Position numbers and translations under genes: made by a program
In this document: positions 52,802 through 62,321 of the stretch, one piece after another
Layout: every line of letters begins with the position of its first letter
Numbering within the stretch: position 1 is the stretch's first letter
Assembly: GCA_031412295.1 (NCBI GenBank)
Contig: JANOCU010000032.1
Span: forward strand, 66,956 to 130,955
Length of the DNA: 64,000 nucleotides
Source of the DNA: Bacteroidota bacterium
Lineage (GTDB): Bacteria > Bacteroidota > Bacteroidia > Palsa-965
Reading direction: 5' to 3'
The notes under the pieces: model-generated
What the model saw: only the letters and a program-made list of their open reading frames with translations
Databases searched by the model: none
Told to the model about the DNA's origin: nothing

Positions 52802-53032
52802 GGAAAAGGAAAATAGGAAATTAAGGGGATAAATAATTAAGAATTGAGAAATTAGGTAAAGAAGTAATTAGACCTTCATCACATTCTATATTTTAGGTTG
52901 CATTTCCCGAATTTCTAATCTTCCAGTTTCGATTTGTTAATTGCCTATAGCTCCCATTTCCCTAATTCCCTAATTTCCCTAGTTTCCCCCTTTTCCCTAC
53001 CTTTGCATCCATACAAAAAACTCAACTCTTTC

Positions 53033-55210
53033 ATGAAAAAACACTTACTCGCATTTTCATTTTTTGCACTATTCGGAAGCTTAAGCCTGAATGCGCAAAT
53101 CGTTTATTCCGAAGATTTCGATGGAATCCCCGGACCAACAGCAGGCGGACCCGGAACATATACCATGGCTCCCGGAATGCTACTTCGCAATGTGGATAAC
53201 CGCACACCTGATGCACAGGTTTCTTATGTGAATGAAGCATGGGAACGTCGTGAAGATTTCAACTTTAACGTTGCTGACTCTTGTGCATTCAGCACTTCAT
53301 GGTATTCACCTGTAGGAGCTGCAAATGATTTTATGTGGACACCGGTGATCGGGCCATTGCCTGCGAATTCGGTGCTTTCATGGAATGCTGTAGCGTACGA
53401 TCCAACATTCCTGGATGGTTATGAAGTTCGTATCATGACTATTGCTCCTACCGGCGGAACAGGTGTGATCGGAAATCAGCTTACCAGCTCAACAGTTATC
53501 TTCTCAACCGCCGCTGAAGCAAGCACATGGACTTCCCATTCCGTAAGTCTTTCTGCGTATGCAGGTCAATCCGTTTACATCGGGTTCCGAAATAATTCGA
53601 ATGATAAATTTTTATTGCTCGTTGATGATATTCTAGTGCAGGTACAAGTGAATTTCGATGCAGAATTGTTGAGTGTGGATTCCATGCAGTACACAATTGA
53701 ACCAACATCGCAACGCACACCAAATACAATTAAAGGTGTTGTCCGCAATAATGGTTCGAGCGCAATTACGAACGTACAATTGGTATTCAGTGTATTTGAC
53801 GGAACAATGACACAGGTGTATACTAACTCCAGCCCTGTGCTTGGTTCACTTGCACCAAATGCTACTTCAACGTTAACTGTTGGTTCTTACACACCACCGG
53901 CCGCAATTGATCTTTATACTTACACTTATACCGTAACTACAAGCAGCACCGACCAGGTTCCTGCAAATAATTCACTTTCAAGGACTCTTATCGTTGACGA
54001 CAGCATATACGCACGCGACGATGGGAATGTTGTAGGATCACTTGGAATCGGTGCAGGAAATGGCGGTTATCTCGGTCAGCAATTCGAAGTAGTAAGCAGC
54101 GCTGATCCGTTGACATCCATTTCTTATTACATGACCCGCGGTTATACAGGTCGTCGTACTGCAGCAGTAGTGTGGGATATGCTTTCAGGAGCACCAAATC
54201 AAATTATTGCTTTCACAGATACAATTCTTTACCAGGATGACTCTGCACGTCTTTACACAATAATGATTGACGGCGGTCCAATGTCATTAACACCGGGCAT
54301 GTATGTAGTAACTGCAATTGAATTTGATTCCACGCTGGCACTCGGACAAACAAATACAATTTTCGTCCCCGGAACAACATGGGTAGACTGGCCGACAAGT
54401 CCGATCACAGGTTGGGCAAACAATGAAGACTTCGGTGCAGGATTCATGAAGCCTTATGTAATTCGTCCGAACTTCGGTGATCCTTGTATCGGCTTCTCTT
54501 CACTTGCAACAAGCACAGATGCAACATGCGGCGCTTGTACAGACGGTTCAGCAACAGTCACACTTACTGAAGGAAGCGCGCCTTTCACATACGCATGGTC
54601 GAGCGGCGGAACTGCTGCAACAGAAAATAATCTTGCAATGGGTTCCTATATTGTAACTGTAACAGATCAGTTCGGTTGCACAACAAGTGATACCGTTGCT
54701 GTTGGAAATGATTGCAGCAGCTACAGCGCTTCTGCTTCTTCAGTTGCCGCGTCATGTGCCGTTTGTGCAGATGGAACAGCAACCGCAACCACAACAAACG
54801 GAACAGGGCCATTCACTTACCTCTGGTCGAACGGCGATACTGCTATGACAGCAGACAGTTTGCTCCCGGGAGTTTACACAGTAACAGTAACTGATGCAGC
54901 AGGATGCAGTTCGGTGGTAACTGTAACAGTAAACTTCACAACTTCTACACATACATTAGGCGTAGCAGGTTCTGTAGGCGTTTTCCCTAATCCATCAGAA
55001 GGAAACTTTACCCTGTTCGTGAATATTCCTTCAGCAGCAGATGTGCAGGTTGAAGTAATAAATTCACTCGGACAAGTTGTTTATGCAAGCGCTCACCTGG
55101 ATTATTCCGGTGGACAGCTTCCGATTTTTATTGAAACACCCGGAATGTACACCGTGAAAATCATGACAGCGGAAGCAATGCGTGCGATTCCTGTATTGAT
55201 TAAAAATTAA
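53033..55210 (+). CDS. Secreted protein with a choice-of-anchor-J-like N-terminal domain, two SprB-type repeats and a T9SS type-A CTD
   Basis: The signal peptide is MKKHLLAFSFFALFGSLSLNAQ. The SprB-like repeats are CGACTDGSATVTLTEGSAPFTYAWSSGG...GSYIVTVTDQFGCTTSD and CAVCADGTATATTTNGTGPFTYLWSNGD...GVYTVTVTDAAGCSS. The C-terminus VFPNPSEGNFTLFVN...GMYTVKIMT is the sorting domain. The start is assigned to the internal Met at 53033. Confidence 0.75.
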   Translation: MKKHLLAFSFFALFGSLSLNAQIVYSEDFDGIPGPTAGGPGTYTMAPGMLLRNVDNRTPDAQVSYVNEAWERREDFNFNVADSCAFSTSWYSPVGAANDFMWTPVIGPLPANSVLSWNAVAYDPTFLDGYEVRIMTIAPTGGTGVIGNQLTSSTVIFSTAAEASTWTSHSVSLSAYAGQSVYIGFRNNSNDKFLLLVDDILVQVQVNFDAELLSVDSMQYTIEPTSQRTPNTIKGVVRNNGSSAITNVQLVFSVFDGTMTQVYTNSSPVLGSLAPNATSTLTVGSYTPPAAIDLYTYTYTVTTSSTDQVPANNSLSRTLIVDDSIYARDDGNVVGSLGIGAGNGGYLGQQFEVVSSADPLTSISYYMTRGYTGRRTAAVVWDMLSGAPNQIIAFTDTILYQDDSARLYTIMIDGGPMSLTPGMYVVTAIEFDSTLALGQTNTIFVPGTTWVDWPTSPITGWANNEDFGAGFMKPYVIRPNFGDPCIGFSSLATSTDATCGACTDGSATVTLTEGSAPFTYAWSSGGTAATENNLAMGSYIVTVTDQFGCTTSDTVAVGNDCSSYSASASSVAASCAVCADGTATATTTNGTGPFTYLWSNGDTAMTADSLLPGVYTVTVTDAAGCSSVVTVTVNFTTSTHTLGVAGSVGVFPNPSEGNFTLFVNIPSAADVQVEVINSLGQVVYASAHLDYSGGQLPIFIETPGMYTVKIMTAEAMRAIPVLIKN

Positions 55211-55228
55211 TTTTCATAAACCCGTAAA

Positions 55229-55262
55229 AAAGAGGCTGGTCAATCGATCAGCCTCTTTTTTT
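55229..55262 (+). terminator. Rho-independent terminator
   Basis: AAGAGGCTG, loop GTCAATCGAT, then CAGCCTCTT followed by TTTTTTT. Confidence 0.75.
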
Positions 55263-55307
55263 GCGCTGTGTTTTTGAGTAACTTGCATTAAAATTCAAAC
55301 ACTCCCG

Positions 55308-56876
55308 ATGTCAAAAAAGTTACTTTTCATTTTCGCCGCATTTTTCCTCATCAAAACCGGGATCGCACAACCAACATGGGCGACAGATGTAGCACCGATT
55401 TTATACCAGCATTGCACCAGTTGCCATAATGCAACCGGCATCGCACCATTTTCACTAATGACCTACGCTGATGCATTTCCGAATGCAGGTGATATGGCGA
55501 ATGATGTTTCACAGCGCATTATGCCACCGTGGCCTCCCGATACAGCCTACACACGCTTTTGTGATGAGCGGATTCTTTCACAGGCAGAAATTCAAACCAT
55601 CGTTGACTGGGCTTCAACAGGCGCTCAACCGGGAAATTTAGCATCTGCTCCAACACCACCAACTTATACAGGAATTGCAGCCATCACTAATCCTGATCTC
55701 GTTGCACAAATTCCACTGTACACCGTAAATACAGCAACAGATCTTTATCGCTGCTTCGTAGTACCAAGTGGAAATGCCAGCACAGAATACATCACAAAGA
55801 TCGAAGTGCTTCCGGGTAACCGCGCAATTGTTCACCACGTTTTGGTGTACCAGGACCAGGCCAACACCTGCGTTAATCTTGATAATGCAGATCCGGCTCC
55901 GGGGTATACAAATTTTGGTGGCGTTGGTTCAAACACAGCAACCCTTGTACTTGGTTGGGTTCCCGGACAGGATATGTATCAGCTTCCGGCTAACATGGGA
56001 ATAAAGCTGGAGGCAAATACAAATTTGATTTTCCAGGTGCATTATCCCGGCGGAACATTCAACCAGGTCGACAGCACACAGGTACGAATGACATTTTCTT
56101 CCGGCTTAGTAAGAAATGTTTCGCTTGCCCCGGTAATCAATCATTCCACATCGCTTACAAATGGTCCGTTGTATATTCCGGCCAACCAGGTGCAAACATT
56201 TTACGCGCAGGAATTTGTCAGCCTTGATGCAACCATTATCAGCATCGCGCCGCACATGCATTTGATCGGTAAGTCAATTACAAATTATGCAGTAACGCCA
56301 TTGGCAGATACAATTCCTTTGATCCAAATCAATGATTGGGATTTTCACTGGCAGGGTTTTTACAATTATCGTCAGCCCGTTCACGTTCCGTATGGCAGCA
56401 CACTTTACGCGCACGCGGTGTATGATAATACCGTAAACAATCCATCTAATCCGAACAATCCACCACAAGCAGTTTGGGAAGGCGAATCCACCACCGATGA
56501 AATGATGATCGTGTATTATGCTTATTTGCCGTACCAGCTCGGTGATGAGAATATTATCATCGATTCAACAGTTGCCGTGCAGGAACACATGTATTCCGAT
56601 TTGATCATCACGCCACAACTTTACGAACCATATCCTGTTCCATCAGCGAATGGAGAAAGTGTAACCGTTTCTTTTTTCCTCCCGAATAAAACAGGAGTGA
56701 AAATCGAAATCGTTGATGTAACAGGAAAAGTGATTGCAGTTCCAATGCAAACCACAGAAACATCTGCAGGCTTCGGAAAAGCACAAATCAACACAACAGG
56801 ATTTGCAAAAGGAACCTACATCGTGAAGCTCACTGCAGACGGAAGTGTAAAAACGAAATCGATTATTGTTCAATAA
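55308..56876 (+). CDS. Secreted fusion of a c-type cytochrome (CxxCH) domain and a copper type II (PHM/DBH-like) monooxygenase, with a T9SS type-A CTD
   Basis: It has a signal peptide. The heme motif is HCTSCHN at aa 35..41. The Cu2-monooxygenase His/Met ligand pattern is VHHVLVY, then about 68 aa to QVHYP, then about 72 aa to APHMHLIG, then about 80 aa to DEMMIVYY. The C-terminus SVTVSFFLPNKTGVKIEIVDVTGKV...GTYIVKLTADG is the sorting domain. Confidence 0.65.
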   Translation: MSKKLLFIFAAFFLIKTGIAQPTWATDVAPILYQHCTSCHNATGIAPFSLMTYADAFPNAGDMANDVSQRIMPPWPPDTAYTRFCDERILSQAEIQTIVDWASTGAQPGNLASAPTPPTYTGIAAITNPDLVAQIPLYTVNTATDLYRCFVVPSGNASTEYITKIEVLPGNRAIVHHVLVYQDQANTCVNLDNADPAPGYTNFGGVGSNTATLVLGWVPGQDMYQLPANMGIKLEANTNLIFQVHYPGGTFNQVDSTQVRMTFSSGLVRNVSLAPVINHSTSLTNGPLYIPANQVQTFYAQEFVSLDATIISIAPHMHLIGKSITNYAVTPLADTIPLIQINDWDFHWQGFYNYRQPVHVPYGSTLYAHAVYDNTVNNPSNPNNPPQAVWEGESTTDEMMIVYYAYLPYQLGDENIIIDSTVAVQEHMYSDLIITPQLYEPYPVPSANGESVTVSFFLPNKTGVKIEIVDVTGKVIAVPMQTTETSAGFGKAQINTTGFAKGTYIVKLTADGSVKTKSIIVQ

Positions 56877-56889
56877 TAAAGTCTTCAGA

Positions 56890-56929
56890 AATAAAGAAAG
56901 CGATTCTGCAAAGGGTCGCTTTCTTTATT
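56890..56929. terminator. Bidirectional hairpin terminator between convergent genes
   Basis: AATAAAGAAAGCG, loop ATTCTGCAAAGGGT, then CGCTTTCTTTATT. Confidence 0.6.
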
Positions 56930-57065
56930 GGAGAGAAGCAGTGGTGCATCGTCATTTATGGCGGGGTAAAACGCCCACACGAAACCGGCTTTAGCCAAAC
57001 TACACCTTAGCATCCACGTCCTTCAAGAAAAGGCAAACGCAAGAGAAAAATCTCCCCAATAAAAT

Positions 57066-59043: not shown

Positions 59044-59463
59044 CTAACCTTTCCGCTTCAGCACAATCGCCTTAAACGTAAGCGTAACCGGTGAATTCGA
59101 AGCATTTGATTTTACGATCACCGTTCTTTCCTGGCGGTCCATTGCACTTTTGCTGTCGAAAGTAACTTTTACTATTCCTGTTTGTCCTGTTTGAATCGGT
59201 TGTTTTGGGAAATCTACTTTCGTGCATTCACACGATACTTCTGCTTCGGTAATAATTAAAGGTTCATCGCCGGTATTTGTAAAGGTAAATTCATGCGAAA
59301 CAATATCGCCCTGGTGAATCATTCCGAAATTATGTTTCACCGAATCAAATGTCATTGCAGCGGCCTGCCTGCCCACGTGTTGAGCTGCGCGTTGCAGGCA
59401 GGGATTAGAAACCCTGAAAGCAAAAACGCTGATGAGAAATACGAATGCGAGGAGCCTTTTCAT
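59044..59463 (-). CDS. DUF1573-domain protein, paralog 1
   Basis: 139 aa. It has a signal peptide. The core is FTFTNTGDEPLIITEAEVSCECTKVDFPKQPIQTGQTGIVKVTFDS. Confidence 0.7.
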   Translation of the reverse strand: MKRLLAFVFLISVFAFRVSNPCLQRAAQHVGRQAAAMTFDSVKHNFGMIHQGDIVSHEFTFTNTGDEPLIITEAEVSCECTKVDFPKQPIQTGQTGIVKVTFDSKSAMDRQERTVIVKSNASNSPVTLTFKAIVLKRKG

Positions 59464-59555
59464 GAAATGAAGTTACAATTTAAAAAAACAAAAAGAGCAA
59501 ATACCAAATTCCAAACATTGTCTTGGGATTTGATATTTGCTCTTTTGTATTTCAT

Positions 59556-59960
59556 TTAGGGTGTTACAATTGTTCCGTTAAGATGAAGAACTATATTTCC
59601 GTCACCGTTATTCGAAATGATCGTGGCTGTTTTATGCTGTAGTCCCATTTTATTGGCAGAATCAAACACCACGTGAATTGTTCCTGATTTACCCGGGGCA
59701 ATCGGCTCTTTCGGATAATTAGGAACGGTACAGCTGCACGATCCTTCTGCTGAGGTAATGATCAATGGTGTTTTTCCTGTATTCTTAAATACAAAATCCA
59801 TTTCCACTTTCGTTCCTTGTTTTACCGTTCCGAAATCAATCGTGTCTTGTTTAAATGTCATCACCGGAGCAGATGGATCGATCCCGGCGGTAGATTGCGG
59901 TTGTGCAGACACAGATAAAAATCCGGTCATAAGAATTGCAGCGAGTAGGAACATTTTCAT
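59556..59960 (-). CDS. DUF1573-domain protein, paralog 2
   Basis: 134 aa. FVFKNTGKTPLIITSAEGSCSCTVPNYPKEPIAPGKSGTIHVVFDS. Confidence 0.7.
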   Translation of the reverse strand: MKMFLLAAILMTGFLSVSAQPQSTAGIDPSAPVMTFKQDTIDFGTVKQGTKVEMDFVFKNTGKTPLIITSAEGSCSCTVPNYPKEPIAPGKSGTIHVVFDSANKMGLQHKTATIISNNGDGNIVLHLNGTIVTP

Positions 59961-60019
59961 TGGAGAAAATTTTAGTTTGTTAGGTAATTCACTAACTGCA
60001 AATACTACGCCACGAAATG

Positions 60020-61051
60020 TTAATCCGGTTTGTAAGGCGGAGTGACTTCGCCGATAATATTTAATACTACTACCTGGTCATTATTATACCTAATGATAAT
60101 CTGCTTATGCTGTACTCCTCTTCTGGCATCCGTATTAAGCAGGTATTTTATTACACCCTTTCCACCGGGAGGAATCGGTTCACGAGGTGCTTCAGCAACA
60201 TCACATCCGCAGGCAGTAACACAATCAGTTATTTGAATGGGTGTTGTTCCGGTATTTGTAAAAGGAATTTCAAGCCTTACATATTCACCCTGTTTTACTT
60301 TTTCAAAATGATAAGTTGTTGAATCGAATTTCATATACTGCACTGCATAAACCCATCCTGTCAATTGCAGCTGAACACTTCCATTTTCACTGTTCGATTG
60401 AATGTCGATCGATTTACTCAATGGTCCTGTTCGGTCAGAAGTGGTTTGCGTTATTTTAATTACACCCGATTCACCCGGCGGAATTTCATTCTTTGGCCAT
60501 TCCGCATAGTTAGCGCCATGACCAAATACTACATTCCTGATGATGAGATTTGCTTTACCTGCATTTGTAAAATGAAATTCTTTAACAATCAATGTTCCCT
60601 GTTCCACTTTTCCGAAACTGATTGATGTCGAATCAAACCTGATGAGCGCAAACGGACCGGTCGTGATATTTCCTTTTATATGCAGCACAATATTTCCATC
60701 CCGATTATTCGATTCGATCGTAGTTGTTTTATCCTGCAACCCCATTTTACCATCCGTACAAAAACGAATAACAATCACTCCCTTATTTCCCGGCGCTATC
60801 GGCTCTTTCGGATAATCTGCAACCGTCCCACCTGAACCGCGCGCACCAGTAATAATAAGAGGGGATTTCCCTGTATTCTTAAAATAGAAATTCTCCAGGA
60901 CCTGTGTACCCGGTTTTACATCACAAAAATTTTGAGTTAAAGAATCAAACGTCATCACCGGCTCATTCAGATCGAGTGGGGGTGGAATACTTTGTGCTTC
61001 CGAATTCGCATAACAAAAAAGAAGAATAAAAAAGAGGAGAAATTTTTTCAT
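60020..61051 (-). CDS. Triple-DUF1573-domain protein, paralog 3
   Basis: 343 aa containing three consecutive DUF1573-like modules. Confidence 0.7.
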   Translation of the reverse strand: MKKFLLFFILLFCYANSEAQSIPPPLDLNEPVMTFDSLTQNFCDVKPGTQVLENFYFKNTGKSPLIITGARGSGGTVADYPKEPIAPGNKGVIVIRFCTDGKMGLQDKTTTIESNNRDGNIVLHIKGNITTGPFALIRFDSTSISFGKVEQGTLIVKEFHFTNAGKANLIIRNVVFGHGANYAEWPKNEIPPGESGVIKITQTTSDRTGPLSKSIDIQSNSENGSVQLQLTGWVYAVQYMKFDSTTYHFEKVKQGEYVRLEIPFTNTGTTPIQITDCVTACGCDVAEAPREPIPPGGKGVIKYLLNTDARRGVQHKQIIIRYNNDQVVVLNIIGEVTPPYKPD

Positions 61052-61093
61052 GCAGCGGGATTTGGGTTTATCTAACCAACAAAAATCAAGCCT

Positions 61094-61281
61094 GCCTCAC
61101 CCCGTGGGAGATTTCATCTCACGAACATTTCCAATCCCCCTCTCCAGGGAGAGGGGGATTGGAAGTTTTCATAGAAAGGTTTCAGCAAAATTTCGTGAGA
61201 AGAAAATCTAAATCCCCCTCTCCCCCGGAGAGGGAACACCACAATGCCCATCGCTATAAAAATCTCCCAAAGGGGTGAGGC
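61094..61281. mobile_element. MITE-like 188-bp element with about 21-bp terminal inverted repeats and internal GGGGG/CCCCC palindromes
   Basis: The left TIR is GCCTCACCCCGTGGGAGATTT and the right TIR is AAATCTCCCAAAGGGGTGAGGC. The internal perfect palindromes are CCAATCCCCCTCTCC-AGGG-AGAGGGGGATTGG at 61131..61162 and CCCTCTCCC-CCGG-AGAGGGA within 61213..61235. There is also CATCTCACGAA ... TTCGTGAGAAG. Confidence 0.45.
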
Positions 61282-61305
61282 ACAAAAATTTAGTTTTAAC
61301 CAAAA

Positions 61306-61737
61306 TTAATTCCCGCCTGTGGCCGGTGTGCCGGCGGGAGTTACTGTACCTTTAATTTTTACGTCAACAATTGCATTCGATGCGTTCGATGTTACTGTGA
61401 TCTTTTTGTCAAACATTCCCGGACGATTTGTTGTATCATATTTTACTTTAAAAGAAGCTGTTCCCCCGGGAGGAATCGGATCTTTTGGCCAGCCTTCAGG
61501 TAATGTAGTGCAACCACACTGACCTTTGATGCTGGTAATTATCAATGGTGTTTTTCCTGTATTTGTAAATGTAAAAACACGAATTGCCTCTGTTCCGTAA
61601 ACAATACTTCCGAAGTTGATCTCTGTTTCTGCAAAAGTGATCACAGGTGCATTCGGATCTGCAAGAGCAACGGGTGCTTGTGCAGACAAACGCATGGAAG
61701 CGACAAGCAAAAACAATACAGGAATGAATCGTTTCAT
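61306..61737 (-). CDS. DUF1573-domain protein, paralog 4
   Basis: 143 aa. FTFTNTGKTPLIITSIKGQCGCTTLPEGWPKDPIPPGGTASFKVKYDT. Confidence 0.7.
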   Translation of the reverse strand: MKRFIPVLFLLVASMRLSAQAPVALADPNAPVITFAETEINFGSIVYGTEAIRVFTFTNTGKTPLIITSIKGQCGCTTLPEGWPKDPIPPGGTASFKVKYDTTNRPGMFDKKITVTSNASNAIVDVKIKGTVTPAGTPATGGN

Positions 61738-61751
61738 CGGATTGTGGCTGA

Positions 61752-62321
61752 TTAGTTATTTACCGGGGTTGCACCATTTGTTGGTGTTGAACCTGGTCCC
61801 GGGAAAGATGTTTCAGAAGGCGGAGCTTCAACAGTTCCTTTAATTTTAAGAACTGCAGGAGTATCTTTTCCCTGGAAAGTCACTGTAACCTGCTTTTCAA
61901 AAGGTCCGATACGATTTGTATCGTAGTGAACTGTGATTACAACAGTTTGTCCCGGTTTGATCGGCTCTTTCGGATAAGTTGGAACCGTACAGCCACATGA
62001 ACCGTGCGCTTCAGTGATTACAAGCATTTCTTTGCTTGTATTCGTGATGCGGAATTCACAATTAGGCTCGCCACCTTTTTTGATAGTGCCGTAATCGTGT
62101 GTGGTTTTGTCAAACTTATAACCAGGATCAGCCTTGGTTTGAGTTGTTGCGGCCGGGGCTGTTTGCGTAGTTGCAGGTGCAGTCTTTGTTGTTGCAGCCG
62201 GAGCTGGTTTAGTAGCAGCAGGAGCCGGTTTGGTTGCTGTTGGAGCCGGTTTGGTAACCGTTTGTGCATTAGCAGCAGCAAAACCAAAGCAAAGGACAGA
62301 AATTGCGATCAGCTTTTTCAT
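61752..62321 (-). CDS. DUF1573-domain protein, paralog 5, with an N-terminal KPAPAAT/TTQTAPA low-complexity linker
   Basis: 189 aa. FRITNTSKEMLVITEAHGSCGCTVPTYPKEPIKPGQTVVITVHYDT. Confidence 0.7.
   Translation of the reverse strand: MKKLIAISVLCFGFAAANAQTVTKPAPTATKPAPAATKPAPAATTKTAPATTQTAPAATTQTKADPGYKFDKTTHDYGTIKKGGEPNCEFRITNTSKEMLVITEAHGSCGCTVPTYPKEPIKPGQTVVITVHYDTNRIGPFEKQVTVTFQGKDTPAVLKIKGTVEAPPSETSFPGPGSTPTNGATPVNN

Follow-up and report, generated by a model that had tools for sequence, protein, structure and literature searches.

What kind of enzyme is a bacterial protein that carries a haem c attachment motif and the copper-ligand pattern of animal hydroxylases in one chain, and what would supply its copper with electrons? 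The question is raised by a single gene in a 64,000-nucleotide stretch of Bacteroidota DNA (assembly GCA_031412295.1, contig JANOCU010000032.1, positions 66,956 to 130,955 of the forward strand), which in its whole length we call the window; positions are counted from its first letter. A sequence-only reading had described the product as a cytochrome c fused to a copper monooxygenase of the PHM/DBH type and exported via the T9SS (type IX secretion system), with the cytochrome in place of ascorbate as electron donor. We find that the protein belongs to the copper type II monooxygenase superfamily by both domains, by the CuH and the CuM site and by fold, and that it ends in a type A T9SS sorting domain. 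Judged from its sequence, it appears to be a known enzyme type in a new form, changed in both architecture and function, and drawn from a very large uncharacterised bacterial family.

The copper core

Both halves of the core are recognised in a Pfam scan: PF01082 (Cu2_monooxygen) scores 34.8 bits over residues 138–246 (gathering cut-off 30) and PF03712 (Cu2_monoox_C) 35.3 bits over residues 309–408 (gathering cut-off 23), and all 31 homologues scanned match both models. This agrees with the family membership that had been proposed from ligand spacing. The spacing itself is as described: 68 residues separate H177 from H245, 71 separate H245 from H316, and 81 separate H318 from M399. A search of the PDB with the single sequence (phmmer) gives no match. 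A family profile built from the 31 homologues finds human DBH (4zel) at E = 1.8e-5 and rat PHM (1opm, 1phm and others) at E = 7e-5.

The profile alignment, in which PHM numbering is recovered from chain positions by an offset of +44, places H176/H177 opposite PHM H107/H108 (VHHML; VHHME in DBH) and Q243/H245 opposite PHM Q170/H172, with IFQVHY here for LQVHY in PHM. In the second domain H316/H318 fall on PHM H242/H244 (H-M-H for H-T-H), and E398-M399 fall on E313-M314 in the shared D-E-M motif. All six ligands are in register with both PHM and DBH, in the very comparison that had been named as able to overturn the assignment.

The fold leads to the same enzymes. With 95 homologues as input, AlphaFold2 gives a model with a mean predicted local distance difference test score (pLDDT) of 91 and a predicted template modelling score of 0.84. 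Its 28 best Foldseek matches in the PDB, with E-values from 5.7e-14 to 2e-10, are DBH (4zel, E = 5.7e-14) and 27 PHM entries, the best of which reaches E ~6e-13; template modelling scores normalised on the length of PHM are 0.56–0.66. The PDB matches include no bacterial structure of this two-jelly-roll fold. By its likeness to PHM and DBH, the core would be expected to hold two copper ions and to hydroxylate C–H bonds with O2.

A probable N-terminal cytochrome c module

The haem attachment motif HCTSCHN occupies residues 35–41, about 15 residues past the likely signal peptide cleavage site, and thus lies near the mature N-terminus as the sequence-only reading had placed it. The signal peptide, read by inspection, has a KK n-region, a hydrophobic core and an Ala–Gln junction (..GIA before Q21); it is conserved across the alignment, and the AlphaFold2 model forms a helix at residues 3–18. 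Q21, at least 90% conserved in the homologues, is probably the mature N-terminus, and it fits the habit of Bacteroidota mature proteins to start with Gln.

The cytochrome nature of the domain is borne out in part: the CxxCH motif and Met72 are invariant and the profile signals agree with each other, whereas no cytochrome Pfam model reaches its gathering score in the target itself. Among the 31 homologues, Haem_bd is matched by 28, Cytochrome_CBB3 by 23 and Cytochrom_C by 10. When 25 diverse N-terminal domains are taken alone, Cytochrome_CBB3 matches every one (E ≤1, best 1.3e-6), Haem_bd 21, Cytochrom_C 20 and PccH 11. The equivalent domain of two distant members exceeds the Cytochrome_CBB3 cut-off of 27, with 34.1 bits in P0136 and 37.1 bits in P0243. 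Searched against the PDB, the domain profile gives 44 matches at E ≤10, nearly all of them c-type cytochromes, including c555, the haem domain of hydrazine synthase alpha, the cytochrome c subunits of bc1, CcoP, c6 and PccH. The match to the haem c domain of hydrazine synthase alpha (PDB 5C2V) covers two motifs, ..DIxPIL..C..CH on the N-terminal side and LT..E...I..W...GA on the C-terminal side. Because an invariant motif is joined here by consistent sub-threshold and transitive matches, we assign the domain as a divergent, class I-like monohaem cytochrome c module that would carry one covalent haem, with Met72 probably as its distal ligand. No second CxxCH is present in any window open reading frame (ORF) of at least 100 residues.

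Joint conservation of haem and copper sites

Across 95 full-length homologues, down to 47% identity, the residues C36, C39, H40, M72-P73-P74-W, H176, H177, H245, H316-M-H318 and E398-M399 are invariant. We also aligned the best 150 cluster representatives, 32–56% identical to the target, to the family hidden Markov model. The six copper ligands are complete in 137 of the 141 representatives that cover them: H176 is kept in 148, H177 in 147, H245 in 146, H316 in 145 and H318 in 147 of the 150, and M399 in 138 of 141 aligned. The set C36/C39/H40/M72 is complete in 139 of 140 representatives, and M72 alone is present in all 147 that align there. Since both ligand sets are near-complete in such diverse representatives, the haem and copper sites are kept jointly over wide divergence and are thus under joint selection; this is the strongest indirect argument for their working together.

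One further cysteine stands out. C149 (55752–55754), a lone Cys in the CuH domain, aligns with PHM C81 and lies next to Y147, the counterpart of PHM Y79. Close homologues keep it at 90% or more, 98 of the 150 representatives have it, and no partner Cys co-varies with it. A disulfide between C149 and C188 was considered and rejected, as the two positions do not co-vary. A free thiol close to CuH would be unusual.

Predicted export via type IX secretion

The C-terminal sorting domain is firmly recognised, in agreement with the T9SS export that had been proposed. TIGR04183 of NCBIfam scores 42.9 bits (cut-off 23, E = 3.6e-11) over residues 442–522, and PF18962 (Por_Secre_tail) scores 40.9 bits (cut-off 27, E = 2.5e-10) over residues 442–521. 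The same tail is present in 31 of 31 scanned homologues, and the family profile matches the solved T9SS C-terminal domains 8glk_D and 8glj_D. The host very likely possesses a T9SS, because the gene immediately upstream encodes a SprB-repeat protein with its own Por_Secre_tail and the close relatives all come from Bacteroidota metagenome-assembled genomes (MAGs). The protein would accordingly be predicted to reside at the cell surface or outside the cell.

The architecture as a whole, from signal peptide through CxxCH domain and two-copper core to T9SS tail, is in our judgement very probably read correctly. Confidence in the model is lower in the linker before the tail, where pLDDT falls to 64 at residues 421–430. 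NCBIfam recognises the T9SS domain and nothing else in the target, which is why relatives bear the name "T9SS type A sorting domain-containing protein" at NCBI.

A large bacterial family

An exhaustive HMMER scan of 1.84 billion cluster representatives (50% identity) with the core, T9SS tail removed, returned 12,650 clusters at E ≤1e-3 and 2,285 at E ≤1e-30. With one genome scanned per species, relatives are found in at least 524 GTDB species, mostly uncultured Bacteroidota. The best 80 of these are all MAGs and nearly all labelled Bacteroidota, under the names Bacteroidia, Flavobacteriales, Chitinophagales, Saprospiraceae and Sphingobacteriales; the nearest among them is "Bacteroidia bacterium ant_bin.335", at 97% identity. 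Members of Chitinophagaceae have homologues as well, and the family extends to Acidobacteriota. Some MAG records carry implausible or isolate-species names (among them Synechococcus sp., Bifidobacterium sp., Chitinophaga pinensis and Chryseobacterium gleum, at loci L016, L056, L021, L032 and L083), and these are probably mislabelled or contaminated bins. The longest contig is 50,817 for both P0064 and P0066, which may share one contig.

Approximately two-thirds of the 150 representatives share the same layout of about 520 residues. Longer members insert PKD, immunoglobulin or InlB-type spacers between the core and the T9SS tail, at the position of the linker; spacers between core and C-terminal domain are usual in surface enzymes. 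Other members have the module twice, carry additional EF-hands, or combine it with AhpC/TSA and thioredoxin-like domains in a fusion. P0243 (locus L088, 4171–7926) holds two modules in a 1251-residue protein with AhpC/TSA and thioredoxin-like domains, and such AhpC/TSA-fused relatives adjoin further large AhpC/TSA-containing proteins, forming a cluster. P0136 combines two modules with EF-hand motifs. These architectures suggest that, in other phyla, the module is tied to thiol, peroxide or calcium chemistry. At loci L079 (5926–8581) and L084 (4342–7581) the gene is present as two tandem paralogues. At one non-Bacteroidota locus (L087; 8779–9996 and 10138–11256) the stop of the gene overlaps a 405-residue gene without a Pfam match, which is followed by a PQQ_2 beta-propeller; the arrangement is possibly an operon with partner proteins.

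Database names of the members are generic, such as "mono/diheme cytochrome c family protein" and "hypothetical protein". PHM, DBH and TBM are textbook animal or eukaryotic enzymes. A review of PAM evolution lists only eukaryotic lineages (PMC6529398). We found no paper on a bacterial PHM/DBH-like family or on its cytochrome fusions in open-access literature and bioRxiv; subscription journals may hold one.

Genomic setting

Strong hairpins stand on both sides of the gene (Table 1). The upstream one folds at -26 kcal/mol (z -6.8) and the downstream one at -27.7 kcal/mol (z -6.3), and in either case 0 of 200 shuffled sequences fold as well. The downstream hairpin, between convergent genes, is likely a bidirectional terminator, and the gene is a stand-alone, monocistronic unit.

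Neighbouring genes in the window encode a MacB/FtsX permease, NamZ, the SprB-repeat T9SS protein, a PAP2 phosphatase, a class I/II aminotransferase and an array of DUF1573 proteins in tandem; no link to the enzyme is obvious for any of them. The window holds no paralogue of the target. Its gene order is kept in relatives at 58–78% identity and lost in more distant ones. We clustered all ORFs of 86 loci and also inspected five distant contigs: there is no conserved neighbour, as no gene family occurs in more than 16 of the 86 loci. The recurrent neighbours form two lineage-specific synteny blocks, one of which is the arrangement of the window. The other has a DDAH/amidinotransferase-like gene, its product cytoplasmic, directly upstream at 16 loci. 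At 12 loci (L005, L022, L023, L025, L027–L030, L036, L040, L049 and L082) this second block also contains a divergent gene, 1.3–3.4 kb upstream, for a T9SS-tailed protein of about 625 residues of the GSDH type, similar to pyrroloquinoline quinone (PQQ)-dependent sugar dehydrogenases and matching Pfam GSDH in L005. It is conceivable that this protein serves as an extracellular electron donor, but the linkage may reflect shared ancestry only. The window has no GSDH-type homologue.

The upstream gene (52934–55210, plus strand) is itself a second T9SS cargo, with SprB repeats and a Por_Secre_tail. With the listed TTG as start, 33 residues would precede a typical signal peptide, MKKHLLAFSFFALFGSLSLNAQ; translation therefore probably begins at the ATG at about 53033. 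On the other side, at 59044–62321 of the minus strand and continuing past 62321, five or more paralogous DUF1573 / HYDIN-VesB-like immunoglobulin-domain proteins are encoded in a tandem array; each has a signal peptide, and one has three repeats (60020–61051). Most have a conserved C-x-C motif (SCECT, SCSCT, ACGCD, QCGCT, SCGCT), and these paired cysteines could bind metal. In 12 related loci this array is likewise found downstream of the monooxygenase gene.

Table 1. Features of the gene and its flanks, in window coordinates; the precursor runs in the order signal peptide, cytochrome c domain, CuH domain, CuM domain, linker, T9SS C-terminal domain
Feature	Position	Strand	Residues	Basis or remark
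Intrinsic terminator of the upstream SprB-repeat/T9SS gene, which it divides from the target; stem AAAAAGAGGCUGGUC...GAUCAGCCUCUUUUU, then a U-run	55223..55265	+		folding
Whole gene	55308..56876	+	522-aa precursor	ORF list, Pfam, NCBIfam, AlphaFold2 model
Sec signal peptide MSKKLLFIFAAFFLIKTGIA	55308..55367	+	1-20	read by inspection
Monohaem c-type cytochrome-like domain (N-terminal)	55368..55643	+	~21-112	helices 24-35, 53-68, 92-103
CxxCH haem c attachment motif	55413..55427	+	C36-T-S-C39-H40	motif conservation
M72-P-P-W-P-P motif	55521..55538	+		Met72 candidate sixth (distal) haem ligand
CuH (electron-accepting) beta-sandwich domain	55698..56117	+	~131-270	PF01082, Foldseek to DBH/PHM
Two CuH ligands	55833..55838	+	H176-H177	PHM H107/H108 equivalents; profile alignment
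Third CuH ligand	56040..56042	+	H245	PHM H172 equivalent; profile alignment
CuM (O2-activating, catalytic) beta-sandwich domain	56118..56537	+	~271-410	PF03712, Foldseek
CuM His ligands	56253..56261	+	H316-M-H318	PHM H242/H244 equivalents; profile alignment
CuM Met ligand in D-E-M motif	56502..56504	+	M399	PHM M314 equivalent; DEM aligns with DEM
Linker with conserved G-D-E-N-I motif	56538..56630	+	411-441	D413 and E414 invariant
Type A T9SS C-terminal sorting domain	56631..56873	+	442-522	TIGR04183, PF18962
Strong hairpin directly past the stop, between convergent target and PAP2 genes	56882..56934	.		folding

The substrate

In PHM, R240, N316 and Y318 hold the peptidylglycine substrate, as seen in the PHM–substrate structure 1OPM. 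The position of R240 is A314 here and A, F, S, L or T across the 150 representatives; that of N316 is I401, with L, V or I across the family. Y318 corresponds to Y403, which is Y or F in the family and the only one of the three anchors to be partly kept. The carboxylate anchors R240 and N316 are not conserved, and the protein is therefore no peptide-amidating orthologue of PHM; peptidylglycine hydroxylation was rejected on this ground. Of the substrates that had been suggested from the sequence, glycine-extended peptides are thus disfavoured, and glycans are not favoured either: no polysaccharide utilization locus or carbohydrate-active enzyme gene is linked to the family in the 86 loci. Deriving a substrate from genomic context was likewise given up, since the recurrent neighbours mark lineage-specific synteny and give no ground for assuming functional links. 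The CuM domain has invariant motifs of its own, W344-D-F-H-W-Q-G-x-Y and Y-D-N-T..N-P..N-P, which probably shape a different substrate pocket.

Proposed mechanism and its alternatives

The precursor would cross the inner membrane via Sec. In the periplasm, haem would be attached covalently at C36-x-x-C39-H40, with Met72 as the probable distal ligand, and both copper sites would be loaded; the type A C-terminal domain would then take the folded holoprotein through the T9SS to the cell surface or the medium. The core is expected to work as a non-coupled binuclear copper monooxygenase of the PHM/DBH type: the His/Met haem would deliver electrons one at a time to CuH (H176, H177, H245), which would store each and pass it to CuM (H316, H318, M399), where O2 would be bound and a C–H bond of the substrate hydroxylated. 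The animal enzymes rely on ascorbate to re-reduce CuH, a role that in this protein would most likely fall to the cytochrome c domain, fed by an external or periplasmic donor. His/Met c-type haems typically have potentials near those of the ascorbate radical couple and of the CuH of PHM, so the replacement of ascorbate by haem is thermodynamically plausible. Given the absence of a conserved neighbour in the clustered loci and the hairpins on either flank, the donor module should be either built in or generic. Haem and copper occupancy, electron transfer from haem to CuH and hydroxylase chemistry are predictions, and the mechanism they add up to, a self-contained exported haem–copper monooxygenase, seems to us on balance probable.

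Several observations weigh against this mechanism. We found no documented T9SS cargo with covalent haem c in open-access papers and bioRxiv, and no extracellular reductant for the haem was identified. In the target, Haem_bd scores 15.5–22.1 bits and Cytochrome_CBB3 14.1 bits, for a gathering cut-off of 27. Three relatives (P0255, P0257 and P0259) retain the CxxCH and the Met and lack most or all copper ligands, with YSLWQQ, HAQNHE and YSETHE in place of HHHHHM; these may be pseudo-enzymes, or their haem domain may have an independent role. Finally, distant relatives have AhpC/TSA and thioredoxin-like domains fused on, a hint of thiol or peroxide chemistry for which the simple model offers no account.

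The redoxin fusions are also an argument for a peroxide-linked enzyme, in which the copper would use H2O2 instead of O2, as a peroxygenase or through a peroxide shunt, and the haem would only prime the copper or handle peroxide. LPMOs (lytic polysaccharide monooxygenases) are now thought to use H2O2 as co-substrate, and PHM performs a peroxide shunt in vitro; clusters of fused genes occur around P0243, and at locus L004 the gene adjoins two AhpC/TSA genes and a thioredoxin gene. The window protein, however, lacks a redoxin domain and has unrelated neighbours, the AhpC linkage is confined to few loci (a cluster of 4 in 86), a six-coordinate His/Met haem is an electron carrier and not a peroxidase haem, and the ligands match those of the O2-using PHM and DBH exactly. 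We consider this alternative unlikely. It is quite unlikely, too, that the protein is an extracellular oxidase or electron sink without hydroxylase activity, whose haem would take electrons from Fe(II), humics, thiols or a secreted dehydrogenase and whose copper would reduce O2 to superoxide, H2O2 or water, in the service of reactive oxygen generation, metal oxidation or detoxification. Such a role would accord with the lack of any linked substrate-related gene in the 86 loci, the missing substrate-anchoring residues of PHM, the GSDH-type dehydrogenase 1.3–3.4 kb away in one lineage (12 loci), and the resemblance of the N-terminal profile to PccH, FoxE and MtoD, which act in extracellular or iron-related electron transfer. 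Yet strict conservation extends to the CuM Met and to the entire two-domain cleft, as it does in true monooxygenases, the invariant CuM-domain motifs (W344-x-F-x-W-Q-G-x-Y and Y-D-N...N-P) resemble a specific substrate pocket, and PHM and DBH couple O2 reduction tightly to hydroxylation.

Two further alternatives question one or the other metal site, and both are poorly compatible with the conservation data and structural matches. The CxxCH domain might be free of haem, or its haem might be only structural or sensing, with small-molecule reductants feeding the copper directly as in the animal enzymes. The sub-threshold Pfam scores in the target and the weak structural support for a cytochrome fold would allow this, but C36, C39, H40 and M72 are invariant and complete in 139 of 140 representatives, all 25 diverse N-terminal domains match Cytochrome_CBB3, and the PDB profile matches are almost exclusively c-type cytochromes. 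The module is moreover kept across phyla, Acidobacteriota included, and if no haem were bound, it would be difficult to see why exactly the haem c ligands are conserved in this way; we regard the idea as highly improbable. The PHM fold is common to PNGase F, a secreted Bacteroidota enzyme, and the gene sits among cell-surface and T9SS genes, so a non-catalytic jelly-roll protein with a glycan-binding, amidase-like or copper-buffering role was considered as well. This is barely conceivable given that all six metal ligands are invariant, and a PNGase F-like reading was rejected because Pfam assigns the copper monooxygenase families and not those of PNGase F, while the top 28 structural matches are without exception DBH or PHM.

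The exported haem–copper monooxygenase would have consequences beyond this locus. A PHM/DBH core with all its ligands lies at the centre of a very large bacterial family in which almost every member is fused to cytochrome c, and the family is effectively hidden under a generic T9SS name at NCBI. A bacterial PHM-type enzyme with a built-in haem should be notable, and experimentally useful, to specialists in copper enzymes. If the haem is indeed the point of electron entry, the protein would represent a natural route to PHM-type chemistry without ascorbate, an easily expressed and spectroscopically addressable system for inter-copper electron transfer, and an unrecognised surface oxidative chemistry in abundant Bacteroidota of freshwater, soil and sludge.

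Comparison with known systems

The N-terminal domain resembles class I-like monohaem cytochromes c (PF13442, PF14376, PccH PF22297, PDB 5C2V) in that the CxxCH follows the first helix, a Met comes about 32 residues later and the C-terminal helix is amphipathic. It differs from them in remaining below the Pfam thresholds in the target, in its distinctive invariant M-P-P-W-P-P, and in that it is always the N-terminal module of a copper enzyme and not a free carrier.

With PHM (PDB 1PHM, 1OPM, 1SDW) the protein shares the core of two beta-sandwiches and identical ligands, three His at CuH and two His with a Met at CuM; Q170 and Y79 of PHM also have counterparts here, Q243 and Y147. Identity to PHM, by contrast, is only 16–18% in the Foldseek alignments, and the disulfide pattern of PHM is absent, as the protein has five Cys in total, two of them in the haem motif. 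It is bacterial, has neither a PAL partner nor a membrane anchor, adds the cytochrome c domain and the T9SS tail, and presumably employs haem instead of ascorbate as reductant, which would set it apart from the name of the superfamily but not from its catalytic core.

DBH (4ZEL), grouped with tyramine beta-monooxygenase and MOXD, is the top match both by profile and by structure, and it, too, has an additional N-terminal domain before the copper core. The DOMON fold binds haem b in other proteins. The extra domain of DBH is a DOMON (PMC4846438), so a haem module ahead of the copper core has some analogy. The domain found here, however, is an alpha-helical CxxCH cytochrome c module and not a DOMON beta-sandwich, and the protein differs from DBH further in lacking a dimerisation domain, in being prokaryotic and in its T9SS export signal.

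For the proposed way of working, the closest parallels are found in LPMO systems. CjX183, a secreted c-type cytochrome domain of Cbp2D from Cellvibrio japonicus, reduces the copper of an LPMO, drives its catalysis, and sustains it with less peroxide leakage than ascorbate (PMC8981238). The cytochrome of fungal cellobiose dehydrogenase (CDH) follows the same logic towards LPMOs: an extracellular one-electron haem replaces a small-molecule reductant at copper. A speculative extension, possible though rather doubtful, is that the protein is a one-polypeptide counterpart of fungal CDH–LPMO, its surface haem c harvesting extracellular electrons from PQQ-type dehydrogenases, Fe(II) or reduced humics and its PHM-type copper hydroxylating recalcitrant extracellular organic matter. 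If so, it would be the first c-type cytochrome among T9SS cargo, evidence of an extracellular redox chain in environmental Bacteroidota, and a haem-triggerable bacterial model of the CuH-to-CuM electron transfer that has long been debated for PHM and DBH. In the CjX183 and CDH systems the donor and the copper enzyme are separate, and the LPMO has a histidine brace in an unrelated fold, whereas here the donor and a PHM-type two-copper core form one polypeptide. The likeness is one of the way of working, not of family membership.

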